64,000 bases of DNA from an uncultured Chloracidobacterium sp. (GCA_964545145.1 CAZJFB010000001.1:27616-91615), one strand, 5' to 3'. Counted from the first letter of the stretch, positions 53,009 through 56,197 are shown. Notes: a model not told the origin generated them from the letters alone. Program-made: numbers and translations.

Positions 53009-53206
53009 ATGCCGCATCGCGAACGAAAAAATATCCGTCCGGGAATGCAGGTCGCCATCGTCCTGAAACAAGACCAGCGAACCGGCAAAGAGACAGTCGG
53101 AGTGGTGAAAGACCTGCTGACAAATTCACCGAACCATCCGCACGGGATCAAGGTGAGATTAGAAGATGGACAGGTCGGACGAGTTCAGAGAATCATGGCA
53201 GAATAA
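53009..53206 (+). CDS. YwbE-family small protein (DUF2196)
   Basis: 65 aa. Blocks GV.V.IVLKQDQRTGK...HPHGIKVRL..GQVGRV are typical of YwbE. Confidence 0.75.
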   Translation: MPHRERKNIRPGMQVAIVLKQDQRTGKETVGVVKDLLTNSPNHPHGIKVRLEDGQVGRVQRIMAE

Positions 53207-53278
53207 TTCTGCATTCAACGACGCAGATTTGTGTTATACTTGCAACGCTGTTGAAAGACAATTTTAGGAGGGCCTCCC

Positions 53279-54409
53279 ATGGCTACTTTTTCTGACAGTA
53301 CTTCCGATTCTGTTTTACCTGAGCACTCGGTGGCGAAAGTTAAATTGCTCGGCGAATATTTAAGGTTGTTTTTGAGCATCATTGCAAACGATGGTTATAC
53401 GAAGCGAATACGTATCTTTGACTTATTTTGCGGTGAGGGTATTTACGGTGATTCTGGGGAGGGAAGCCCAATCGTCATTATGAAGGCCGTGAAAGACCTT
53501 TATTACACAAGGGAATCAAAATCATTTCGATCGCCCAAGATAGATTGCTACTTCAACGATAATAATAAGGACAAAGTTCTAAAGGTTGAAGAAAGTATAA
53601 AAACAAAACATCTTCACTACTCTCAAATTGGCGAGATAGCCTATAGCAATCGAAACTACGACGATTTTATTAAGGAACTAATCCAAAGACTCCCGGAAAG
53701 TCGGGATGAAAAGAACTTTGTTTTTATTGATCCCTACGGATACAAGCATATAAGAGCAAGTGACATCCAAGCTCTCCTTTCAAAAGGAAACGTAGAAGTC
53801 CTACTATTTCTGCCCACTCAGTTTATGTATCGCTTCGATTCAAATGGAATGCCGGAAGCTTTAGTAGATTTCATCGAAGAGATCGTTGACTATGGGCAGT
53901 GGAAAGAGACTGATAGCGTTTGGGGGTTTGTCGAGCAACTGAAAATAGCATTTAGACAAAACCTTGGTGCAAGAAGATTTGTCGACACATTCACGATTCA
54001 GAAAGATCCTCAGACTGTATTTTGCTTGTTCTTTTTTAGCAGCCATATCAAAGGCTTTGAAAAAATGTTAGAAGCAAAGTGGAAACTTGATAAAGATCAG
54101 GGGAAGGGGTGGAATTATAGAGGTGATCAACAAAGTAGTTTGTTTTCTGAACTCAAGATTCATCCGCTTGAACAGAAAATGCGAGCATTTCTAACAGAAG
54201 AAGTTAGAGGGAACGGTGATGTGTATGAATTTACACTTCAATGCGGTTTTCTACCCAAACACACGACTGAAGTCTTTACGAACTTGCAAAAATTAGAACA
54301 ATTAATTGTGGAAGACAAACACGGTACGCGAGTACGGAAAGGTTCATTCTATATTAATTACAAGGCGTTTCGAGACGATCCGACTAAAGTACGCTTCTTC
54401 TTAAGCTAG
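53279..54409 (+). CDS. three-Cys-motif partner protein (TcmP)-like, Rossmann/methyltransferase-like fold
   Basis: AGGAGG 8 nt upstream of the ATG. Motifs [14 protein letters not shown] and FVFIDPYGY. Located directly upstream of a Gp37/Gp68 gene, and AT-rich. Confidence 0.75.
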
Positions 54410-54411
54410 TT

Positions 54412-55131
54412 ATGGCACACAAATCTCCGATCGAATGGACCGAATCGACTTGGAACCCGGTAACAGGCTGCAAAAAGATCAGCCCGGGCTGTAAGAATTG
54501 CTACGCCGAGCGGTTATCAAAACGGTTGCAAGCAATGGGTCAGGCAAATTATGTAAATGGATTTGAGCTGACACTCCAGCCACATATGCTTGAACTTCCG
54601 TTGAGGTGGAAAAAGCCACAGACCATATTCGTAAATTCGATGAGCGATCTTTTCCACATCGACGTTCCGCTGGATTACATTCAGCAGGTCTTTGATGTGA
54701 TGAATCAGGCATTTTGGCATCGCTTTCAGGTTTTGACCAAACGAGCGGATCGCTTGGAAGAGCTTAGTTCTGAACTCAATTGGTCAGCAAACATTTGGAT
54801 GGGGGTTTCTGTTGAGAATCAGAAGTATGTCCATCGAATCGATCATCTGCGCCGAACTGATGCGAAAGTGAAATTCCTTTCGCTTGAACCATTGATCGGC
54901 CCTTTGAAGGGAATGAATTTGTCTGGTATCGATTGGGCAATTGTCGGCGGCGAAAGCGGCTATGGCTTTAGACCGATCAAAGAAGAGTGGGTACTGGATA
55001 TCAGAAAACAATGCGACGAATTTAATGTTCCTTTCTTCTTCAAACAGTGGGGCGGTTTTAACAAAAAGAAAACTGGGCGAATGCTCGAGGGACGTACTTA
55101 CGACGAAATGCCAAAACTAGCTTATGCCTAA
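54412..55131 (+). CDS. phage Gp37/Gp68 family protein (DUF5131), Cx6Cx2C motif
   Basis: [28 protein letters not shown]-terminus, then LSLEPL and WAIVGGESG blocks. AT-rich. Confidence 0.85.
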
Positions 55132-56197
55132 TAATTTTCTGATCTACGGTGCCAATGGCTACACCGGCGAACTCATCACCCGAATGGCAGCAGAGCGCGG
55201 CCTAAAGCCGATCCTTGCCGGTCGCAATGAGGCAAAGGTCGCCGAGCTTGCCGCAAAGTACGGCTTCGAGCACCGGGCGTTCTCGCTCGATGACACCGAG
55301 AAGCTCGACGCTGCGCTGAACGAGGTCGATATGGTGCTGCACTGCGCCGGGCCTTTTTCGATCACGAGTCTGCCGATGGTGAAGGCGTGCATTCGAAATA
55401 AGAAGCACTACACAGACATCACGGGCGAGATCAGTGTGTTCGAGACATGTGCGGCGATGGGCAAAAAGGCCGAGGAGGCCGGCGTGATGCTGATGCCGGG
55501 CGTCGGCTTTGACGTGGTGCCGAGCGACTGTCTCGCACGGCATCTCAAGGACCGTCTGCCGACAGCGACGCATCTTTCGCTCGCATTCTATGGCATGGGC
55601 CGTATCTCGCACGGCACTCAGGCGACGATGACGATGAACGTCGGCCGCGGCGGCGCTATTCGCAAAGACGGCAAGATCACGCCTGTTCCGGCGGCGTGGA
55701 AGACCCGCGAGATCGATTTTGGTCCTGTCGGAACCGCGAGCGGTAGCGACCGGGTGAAAAAGCAAGGAGTGACCATTCCGTGGGGCGATGTTTCGACAGC
55801 ATTTTACTCGACCGATATCCCGAATATCGAGGTTTTCACCGTCGTGCCGCCGGATGGCTTGAGATTGATGAAAATGAGCCGCTACCTTGGCTGGCTGCTG
55901 GCAACGAAATTCATCCAGAAATACCTACAGGCGAATATCCCGCCCGGCGGCCCGTCTGACGAGGAACGCGCTAAAGGCAGAACGCTGATGTGGGGCGAAG
56001 CTTCTGACGCCGAAGGCAACCGCGTCGAGTCGCGCCAGCAAGGCCCCGAGGGCTACACGCTCACGGCGATCGCGGCTCTGAACATCGCCGAAAAGATCAT
56101 GGCCGGCAGCTTCACGCCCGGCTATCAAACTCCCGCAAAAGCTTATGGAGCAGGCCTCGTCTTAGAGATCGACGGCGTTGAGCGTGAGGACACTTGA
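55124..56197 (+). CDS. saccharopine dehydrogenase-like NAD(P)-binding oxidoreductase
   Basis: N-terminal Rossmann motif [12 protein letters not shown]. Family-typical length. Its start overlaps the preceding gene by 8 nt. Confidence 0.85.
55731..55753. repeat. 23-nt exact repeat, copy 2, inside the saccharopine-dehydrogenase-like CDS
   Basis: GAACCGCGAGCGGTAGCGACCGG is identical to 22-44. Here it encodes (G)TASGSDR. Confidence 0.9.

Follow-up and report, generated by a model that had tools for sequence, protein, structure and literature searches.

A 64,000-nt stretch of DNA from an uncultured Chloracidobacterium sp., hereafter the window, carries a two-gene insert in which tcmP (gene A), encoding a three-Cys-motif partner protein, is followed by a gene for a DUF5131 protein (gene B). 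The main new observation of this analysis is that the two genes evolve separately: a nearly invariant B is combined, at one chromosomal slot, with several very different As. We consider it about an even chance (probability roughly 0.5) that the pair is a horizontally exchanged, two-subunit conflict module that depends on S-adenosylmethionine (SAM) and acts on nucleic acid, most likely DNA, serving either in defence against phages and plasmids or in the protective marking of DNA. An earlier reading made from the nucleotides by themselves (the sequence-only reading) had singled out both genes, and its coordinates are confirmed:

53279–54409, forward strand: gene A, tcmP; an intact open reading frame of 376 amino acids with matches to TIGR04474, PF22560 and PDC-M30A
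54412–55131, forward strand: gene B, DUF5131 (phage Gp37-Gp68); an intact open reading frame of 239 amino acids with matches to PF07505 and phrog_2045

The two reading frames are 2 nt apart. The B protein of the window is 79–89% identical to other acidobacterial Bs, and the As that accompany those Bs are 15–24% identical to the window A. Exceptions are two loci that carry the same A subtype as the window, L111 (A 78% identical) and L112 (62%). The window A is also 54–55% identical to As from Bacteroidota, with matching Bs that are only 62–63% identical. Within the same slot, a single B lineage is accompanied by at least four A subtypes that share 15–24% identity with each other:

about 376 amino acids: M30A-type A subtype, present in the window
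375–380 amino acids: A subtype of the L044/L101 type
279 amino acids: M41A-type A subtype
236–293 amino acids: A subtype of the L099/L102/L104 type

Both genes are under strong purifying selection. Nonsynonymous divergence (dN) of gene B ranges from 0.075 to 0.147, and its ratio to synonymous divergence (dN/dS) is approximately 0.03–0.04. Gene B is thereby held more tightly than the gene that follows it, the saccharopine-dehydrogenase-like sdh (dN 0.157–0.212, dN/dS approximately 0.11), or than aat, the Leu/Phe-tRNA protein transferase gene located 5' of the insert. For the pair, dN/dS is approximately 0.03–0.05, and within a subtype the dN of gene A is two to three times that of gene B. In the occupied hosts GC content is 33–45% for A, 36–48% for B and 57–60% for sdh. 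A recent transfer among the occupied acidobacterial loci was rejected, since dS is saturated for every pair of loci. Long residence with many losses, or homologous recombination among relatives through the conserved flanks, are possible histories.

The insert (taken as 53207–55123) had been described in the sequence-only reading as AT-rich and horizontally acquired, and both descriptions proved correct. Its GC content is 41.8%, compared with a median of 54% for the window and 53% for the 5-kb flanks, and ranks second lowest among 1242 windows of equal size. The tetranucleotide profile is the most deviant of the window (L1 distance 0.488; median 0.226, 99th percentile 0.415), and GC at third codon positions is 0.40 in gene A and 0.50 in gene B as against 0.55–0.72 in the adjoining genes. 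The host is a soil acidobacterium (Pyrinomonadaceae/Blastocatellia), and an identical copy of the locus is present in GCA_041910475.1 and in many metagenome contigs. Using the sdh gene, we gathered 80 species-level Pyrinomonadaceae/Blastocatellia relatives and scored a site as empty when the last upstream anchor (aat, dinB or ywbE) lay within 200 nt of sdh. Fifty-two sites were empty, 21 held other cargo or a larger gap, four were uninformative and three carried the pair (L044, L053, L065), so that the pair is found in only 3 of 76 informative relatives. Across the 80 loci, A and B always occurred together. The occupied loci are scattered over the sdh tree, and the nearest relatives of the window (L005 and L004) are empty. 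Further copies stand in the same slot (L099, L102, L111 and L112), adjoin aat-dinB-ywbE without sdh (L101) or lie at unrelated sites (L104, the Chitinophagaceae locus L089 and the Lewinellaceae locus L092); in all these loci the pair is a stand-alone two-gene unit. Since it is absent from most syntenic relatives and has a foreign composition, the pair is a horizontally acquired accessory module.

The slot between aat/dinB/ywbE and sdh is a variable slot for accessory genes in general. Other cargo includes beta-lactamase-family hydrolases, tetratricopeptide repeat (TPR) proteins, a 1772-amino-acid surface protein, an M48 peptidase, an aminotransferase-kinase (APH) fusion and DUF6642. Four of the other cargo proteins were compared with PADLOC and matched no defence model. 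The idea of a dedicated defence hotspot is not supported, as the cargo consists mainly of hydrolases, TPR proteins and surface proteins. The sole other cargo that hints at defence is a 225-amino-acid protein in L015 (537–1214) with sub-threshold matches to HEPN (RiboL-PSP) and DUF4145.

Gene A was assigned to its family by profile hidden Markov models (HMMs). It scores 143.8 bits against TIGR04474 (cut-off 53; E = 9.3e-42; amino acids 15–269) and 485.4 bits against PADLOC PDC-M30A, and its sole Pfam match is the GMT-like winged helix PF22560 (amino acids 285–349). All subtypes tested, two phage proteins included, pass TIGR04474 with 117–216 bits; the winged helix is present in the long form of TcmP, and short TcmPs lack it. 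The AlphaFold2 model (predicted local distance difference test score, pLDDT, 83; predicted template-modelling score, pTM, 0.82) comprises a helix at the N terminus, a Rossmann methyltransferase core of seven strands (amino acids approximately 40–275) and a C-terminal winged-helix domain (approximately 285–375) with its three-helix winged helix at 296–375. The predicted strand order, with a beta6-beta7 hairpin, is consistent with class-I methyltransferases, and Foldseek retrieved class-I SAM methyltransferases with probability 1.0 (E = 5e-6 to 1e-5). The best compact fold match was 2oo3 of the DUF519/RlmJ family (template-modelling score TMt 0.57, root-mean-square deviation 4.5); RlmJ (6qe5) and Trm1 (3axs) also matched, as did the RNA methyltransferases TYW4, MnmM and CmoA.

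The protein motifs quoted in the sequence-only reading are all present in A. In a cross-subtype alignment of 14 TcmPs (14–55% identical), K20, Y27, D48, G52, G62-S63, D151-P152 and R185 are conserved. Within motif I (D-x-F-x-G-x-G), D48, F50 and G52 are invariant in the subtype of gene A, and D48 and G52 are conserved at 90% or more across subtypes. At the acidic end of beta2, D94 of gene A aligns with D or E in other subtypes. Motif IV of gene A is D151-P-Y-G and departs from the pattern (D/N/S)-P-P-(Y/F/W); across subtypes it reads D-P-x-G, with Y, F, W, L, T, V or K at the third position. The order of the TcmP motifs is collinear with that of Escherichia coli RlmJ (K18; YLDTHAGAGRY; YPGSP; IDPPYE; WYP). 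A comparison of TcmP with RlmJ by hhalign gave a probability of 55%, restricted to motif I, and the control RsmJ gave 0.5%. The methyltransferase part of four TcmP subtypes had no match in Pfam at E = 10 and thus lies outside its curated families, and searches of PDB sequences with single sequences and three profiles returned nothing significant. Taken together, the structural model supports a class-I SAM-methyltransferase-like fold for gene A, nearest to RlmJ and Trm1, in line with the earlier expectation of a SAM site.

Gene B matches PF07505 over its full length (337.3 bits, E = 6.9e-101; gathering threshold 28.9) and scores 412.6 bits against PDC-M41B and 395.2 bits against PDC-M30B in PADLOC, phrog_2045 being a further match. 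The N-terminal motif WNPVTGC-x6-C-x2-C, also noted in the sequence-only reading, contains a Cys triad (C20-x6-C27-x2-C30) that is invariant in 47 homologues; other invariant elements are C201, SMSDLFH after beta2, and GGESG at 179–183. The spacing CX6CX2C is non-canonical for radical-SAM enzymes. In the AlphaFold2 model (pLDDT 78, pTM 0.77) six beta/alpha units are predicted, and a strand (12–14), the Cys-triad loop and a helix (31–41) follow each other in a radical-SAM layout. The best PDB fold match was spore photoproduct lyase (probability 0.99, template-modelling score 0.41–0.50, E = 5e-3), followed by generic triosephosphate isomerase (TIM) barrels, and in a viral fold library DUF5131 homologues came first and then many phage radical-SAM proteins. 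The spore photoproduct lyase family HMMs of NCBIfam and Pfam did not match gene B, and TIGR04471 (radical SAM mobile pair protein A) scored 83 bits, where the cut-off is 355. In RadicalSAM.org, DUF5131 forms the subgroup megacluster 5-2 and spore photoproduct lyase 5-3 (PMC9477430). Gene B is thus a probable radical-SAM enzyme with a predicted partial TIM barrel, and the model supports a radical-SAM-like fold with a Cys triad. In Logan contigs L082–L087, automatic gene calls shorten DUF5131 to 198 amino acids and drop the Cys triad. At the DNA level these contigs match the 239-amino-acid reading frame of the window with 100% identity, which marks the short form as a gene-calling artefact and not a truncation.

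The pairing of TcmP with the three-Cys protein has been named in TIGRFAMs for years, as a naming convention without an assigned function. Both component HMMs of PDC-M30, one of the phage-defence candidates (PDCs) in PADLOC, match the adjacent genes of the window, and the pair is therefore the catalogued PDC-M30. This candidate is defined as FAM_02577>>FAM_00989 and PDC-M41 as FAM_02405>>FAM_00989, that is, a single B family with two A families, and the PDCs were nominated by guilt-by-embedding in BREX, DISARM or type I restriction-modification (RM) loci (Payne et al., bioRxiv 10.1101/2024.01.29.577857). We found no later papers mentioning PDC-M30 or PDC-M41. The view that the system was undescribed consequently had to be given up: the locus is a further copy of a catalogued candidate system and not a new kind of system. 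In the wider literature TcmP is mentioned in passing, once as adjoining the Hna defence gene on a Sinorhizobium (S. meliloti) megaplasmid and once as prophage cargo.

Carriage on phages, plasmids and elements resembling integrative and conjugative elements (ICEs) is extensive. A DUF5131 search returned at least 8,000 proteins, and B homologues occur in 180 phage records and 438 plasmid records, of which 164 concern conjugative plasmids. The TcmP profile retrieved 3,193 representative clusters (50% identity) from 1.84 billion proteins. Neither fusions of A to an effector nor fusions of A to B were seen among the best 120–150 matches (the best 150 for the TcmP profile). Temperate Gordonia phage Jablanski carries B and TcmP in convergent orientation, with the integrases on one side and the immunity repressor on the other, a position in which genes expressed from the prophage are often located, and the same convergent pair is present in a Synechococcus phage. 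On a Hymenobacter plasmid the pair lies beside a tyrosine recombinase, HigB and IS4, and on a Mycolicibacterium plasmid beside ImmA/IrrE and PIN genes. Many phage Bs are found without a recognisable TcmP, near DNA methyltransferases; in Che9c, for instance, the Dcm-like gp65 stands three genes 5' of gp68 (B).

Two further arrangements were observed. In Mycobacterium prophage prophiGD13-2 (L109, 606–4964), genes for a CcrM-like methylase, a DNA-binding protein, a hypothetical protein, a DUF5131 protein annotated as an RNA methyltransferase, a PAPS-reductase-like protein and an HNH endonuclease are co-oriented, which looks like a phage DNA-modification cluster using DUF5131 without TcmP. On a Pseudomonas aeruginosa conjugative plasmid with ICE genes (L097, 242–8308), two different tandem TcmPs adjoin a DEAD/DEAH helicase and DUF6094. 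No Gp37/Gp68 gene is listed beside these two TcmPs in the PLSDB tables, which are incomplete. The adjacency to a helicase echoes that of TcmP and the Hna helicase in S. meliloti.

These observations can be joined in the following model. Gene B would be the catalytic engine, its three invariant Cys residues holding a [4Fe-4S] cluster that cleaves SAM to give a 5'-deoxyadenosyl radical. This radical might then attack a base or sugar in the active site, in much the way that spore photoproduct lyase acts on DNA bases that have been flipped out. Gene A would act as the targeting subunit, with an RlmJ/Trm1-like fold, SAM motifs and a winged helix for nucleic-acid binding; its D-P-x-G pocket corresponds in type to the one into which exocyclic-amine methyltransferases take a flipped base. 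A could select the site, present the base and perhaps methylate it. The turnover of A and the swapping of its subtypes beside a near-frozen B would reflect shifting target specificity in an arms race. We infer the Fe-S and SAM chemistry and a physical partnership of A with B. DNA appears the likelier substrate on three grounds: B has an affinity to spore photoproduct lyase, its phage copies have genes for DNA methylases, HNH proteins and replication as neighbours, and A has a winged helix. An RNA target stays in view, given the resemblance of A to RNA methyltransferases. A role in conflict is suggested by the patchy distribution, the foreign composition, the mobile carriage and the turnover of A.

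Several points weigh against this model. The window copy is surrounded by housekeeping genes and lies outside any defence island, and the other cargo of its slot is mostly unrelated to defence. Scans with NCBIfam, Pfam and PADLOC revealed no nuclease, helicase, ATPase or other recognisable effector in the two-gene unit, and no third conserved gene stands beside the pair across the occupied loci inspected. The closest methyltransferase relatives of gene A act on rRNA or tRNA, not on DNA, and D-P-x-G does not have an aromatic third residue in all subtypes, so that it is not certain that each of them transfers methyl groups. On the side of gene B, the match to the spore photoproduct lyase fold is weak, and GGESG follows the sixth strand, while the canonical GGE is placed at the end of beta2; the two were therefore not equated and the role of GGESG is uncertain. 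Being more conserved than core genes, and coupled to sdh in eight deeply diverged loci, B would also fit a long-resident, housekeeping-like enzyme. The literature search found no functional study of DUF5131, TcmP or GMT-wHTH, and the authors of the catalogue state that all 145 PDCs are untested (bioRxiv 10.1101/2024.01.29.577857).

An alternative is that the pair modifies RNA, with TcmP as an rRNA or tRNA methyltransferase of the RlmJ/Trm1 type and DUF5131 as an RlmN/Cfr-like radical-SAM modifier of RNA; a base in the ribosome or in tRNA would be altered, for example to confer resistance to an antibiotic or toxin or to retune translation. The best compact folds of A (RlmJ/DUF519, Trm1, TYW4, MnmM and CmoA) and its RlmJ-like motif order speak for this, radical-SAM RNA methylases are well known, and some annotators label phage DUF5131 proteins 'RNA methyltransferase'. 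However, B groups by fold and in RadicalSAM.org with the DNA enzyme spore photoproduct lyase and not with RlmN/Cfr, and the phage Bs have genes for DNA methylases, HNH proteins and replication around them. DNA binding is the more typical role of a winged helix, and a universal RNA target leaves the occurrence of at least four A subtypes beside one B unexplained. We regard an RNA-modifying pair as unlikely.

A more elaborate proposal is an immunity that resembles restriction but has no nuclease. TcmP would methylate host DNA at subtype-specific sites and guide DUF5131 to unmarked invader DNA, where hydrogen abstraction from a flipped base or sugar could lead to a break, a crosslink or a blocking adduct. 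A swap of A would re-programme the specificity and leave the radical engine fixed. In this specific form the idea is improbable.

It is very doubtful that the pair is an accessory to DNA repair, in which DUF5131 reverses a lesion by radical chemistry and TcmP finds or flips the lesion, to the benefit of soil bacteria and phages exposed to ultraviolet light or desiccation. Spore photoproduct lyase is the best PDB fold of B and its neighbour in RadicalSAM.org, one phage record (H17) gives a B homologue that name, selection on B is very strongly purifying, and B stands alone in many phages. These points have to be set against the absence of a spore photoproduct lyase HMM match, the different Cys spacing and the presence of the pair in only 3 of 76 informative relatives. 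Foreign composition, carriage on plasmids, on ICE-like elements and in prophage lysogeny regions, and embedding in RM, BREX and DISARM loci are not expected of repair genes, and a constant lesion as target would not drive the turnover of A subtypes.

Just as doubtful is a small-molecule immunity of the viperin type, in which DUF5131 would make analogues that terminate chains or are toxic from a free nucleotide, to be methylated or otherwise tailored by TcmP. Prokaryotic viperins are radical-SAM enzymes that make antiviral nucleotides, Ophion, a viperin-related radical-SAM system, has recently been validated, and the absence of a nuclease from the pair would suit such a system. Yet B is unrelated in sequence to viperins, matching only PF07505 and, below threshold, TIGR04471; A has a nucleic-acid-binding winged helix and a predicted macromolecule-methyltransferase fold like that of RlmJ and Trm1; and a small-molecule substrate leaves the diversification of A unexplained. 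The Ophion radical-SAM protein was itself considered as a relative of B and rejected, being viperin-like and unrelated. Functionless passenger DNA, i.e. the decaying remnants of a mobile element, would fit an AT-rich foreign composition and the lack of a known function, and is effectively refuted by purifying selection and conservation: dN/dS is far down at approximately 0.03–0.05, both reading frames are intact with every family-invariant residue, the locus is identical in many independent metagenomes, and homologues number in the thousands.

Having weighed these alternatives, we retain the DNA-directed conflict module as our preferred reading. The junctions of the insert with its neighbours were analyzed in addition. 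As the sequence-only reading had described, the insert begins in the gap after ywbE and gene B overlaps the next ATG by 8 nt. The elements around the pair are:

5' of the insert: matE, aat, a DinB_2 gene and ywbE
ending at 53206, 72 nt 5' of gene A: ywbE (TIGR03833, 115.6 bits)
53208–53227, forward strand: imperfect short hairpin, with a T-rich run after it, just 3' of the ywbE stop at the left edge of the foreign DNA, read from the sequence
53230–53249, forward strand: promoter-like 20-mer TGTGTTATACTTGCAACGCT, with the extended -10 form TGnTATACT, 5' of gene A
53230–53240, forward strand: extended -10-like element TGTGTTATACT, within the 72-nt spacer before gene A
53266–53271, forward strand: Shine-Dalgarno AGGAGG, 7 nt 5' of the gene A ATG, read from the sequence
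55124–55131, forward strand: 8-nt overlap ATGCCTAA, where the last codons of gene B contain the ATG of sdh (55124)
55124–56197: sdh, saccharopine-dehydrogenase-like, the 3' neighbour of gene B

The hairpin may be a weak ywbE terminator; a terminator scan flagged its stem on the opposite strand. The 20-mer TGTGTTATACTTGCAACGCT recurs with one mismatch 5' of a different TcmP subtype in L044 (6090) and with two mismatches 5' of an unrelated gene in L067 (2633, reverse strand), and a simple sigma-70 scan did not call it. Its occurrence before an unrelated gene led us to reject it as a cassette end and points to a generic promoter, probably a type common in the lineage. An Rfam scan of the insert region gave no match.

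Seven other occupied loci share the junction between B and sdh in the form of ATGCCTAA, ATGCCTGA or ATGCATAA, and wherever the pair is linked to sdh, the 8-nt overlap places the sdh start codon within the end of gene B. This arrangement points to translational coupling. In empty sites, sdh has its own ATG after an intergenic spacer. Seven of the 18 empty sites inspected (e.g. L004 3828–3879, L016 and L046) contain a conserved intergenic motif before sdh, TTTGCGTCCTTTGCGGCTTTGCGTGAAAAT, possibly an sdh promoter or operator. The motif is gone from the occupied loci, including positions 53207–53278 of the window, and there sdh now probably relies on transcription from the inserted pair.

A direct repeat at the two borders of the insert, pointed out in the sequence-only reading, did not withstand analysis. 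The sole exact common word is the 7-mer AATAATT, and two 61-nt border windows have a 7-mer in common at a rate of 16% after shuffling and of 22% among real pairs 1.92 kb apart. The right copy corresponds to sdh codons 3–6 and is homologous to AACAAATTCCTG in empty sites, and the left copy is the conserved Glu-stop of ywbE. A chance-level 7-mer with both halves derived from native coding sequence is not a target-site duplication, and this interpretation was rejected. No donor-like tract was found in the 5' end of sdh past the first four to five codons; over the following 26 nt the sequence is the same as in the empty relative L004. Gene B itself is exactly bracketed by a 16-nt inverted repeat (54402–54417 and 55109–55124, 15 of 16 positions complementary), with one arm over the stop of A and the start of B and the other from the 3' end of B to the sdh ATG. 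Approximately 0.03 such repeats are expected by chance in the 2.15-kb region, and pairing of the arms in the mRNA could occlude both start sites. The repeat is absent from 12 other occupied loci and was rejected both as a recombination site and as a conserved mRNA clamp.

DUF5131 is a large radical-SAM subgroup, and the methyltransferase-like TcmPs (approximately 3,200 clusters) have no Pfam model for their catalytic domain. If radical chemistry is indeed what the pair uses to modify or attack DNA, a new biochemical principle would be added to bacterial immunity or epigenetic marking. The combination of a near-invariant B with several very different As at one slot offers a design for finding what A specifies, and the acidobacterial slot provides natural empty and occupied genotypes for comparison.

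Among known systems, PDC-M30 and PDC-M41 have the same two families in the same order, and their shared B with different As matches the subtype swapping described here. The copies that led to their nomination, however, lie inside BREX, DISARM or type I RM loci, whereas the window copy is solitary among housekeeping genes. With the TIGR04474/PF07505 pairing our locus shares gene adjacency and scores above both cut-offs, which confirms the profile matches anticipated in the sequence-only reading; it differs in that the long A adds the PF22560 winged helix. Spore photoproduct lyase resembles B in the predicted partial TIM barrel, the N-terminal Cys-triad loop and the neighbouring RadicalSAM.org subgroup. 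Identity is nevertheless approximately 11–13%, the lyase is longer by about 100 residues, B is obligately partnered by a methyltransferase-like protein, and CX6CX2C in B replaces the CX3CX2C that is canonical for spore photoproduct lyase. RlmJ and Trm1, which form m6A2030 in 23S rRNA and m2,2G26 in tRNA, respectively, share with A the class-I fold and a collinear series of an N-terminal Lys helix, D-x-(F/H)-A-G-x-G-x-Y, GSP, the acidic beta2 end, D-P-x-x and (F/W)-x-P, and the D-P-Y/F-G of TcmP resembles the DPFG motif of Trm1. In contrast to these enzymes, TcmP carries an additional winged helix, its gene is invariably accompanied by one for a radical-SAM protein, and at the level of sequence HMMs TcmP does not belong to their families. 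The mobile pair of TIGR04471 is likewise a mobile two-gene set with weak homology to B (28–29% identity to copies on Bacteroides plasmids), but B scores far below the cut-off and the partner there is a second radical-SAM protein, not TcmP. Finally, type I and type III RM and BREX systems resemble the pair in logic only: in them, too, a methyltransferase-like subunit that evolves fast and can be swapped stands beside a conserved partner, and the distribution is patchy and mobile. Unlike them, the pair described here is without a nuclease, helicase or ATPase, and its conserved partner is a radical-SAM enzyme.

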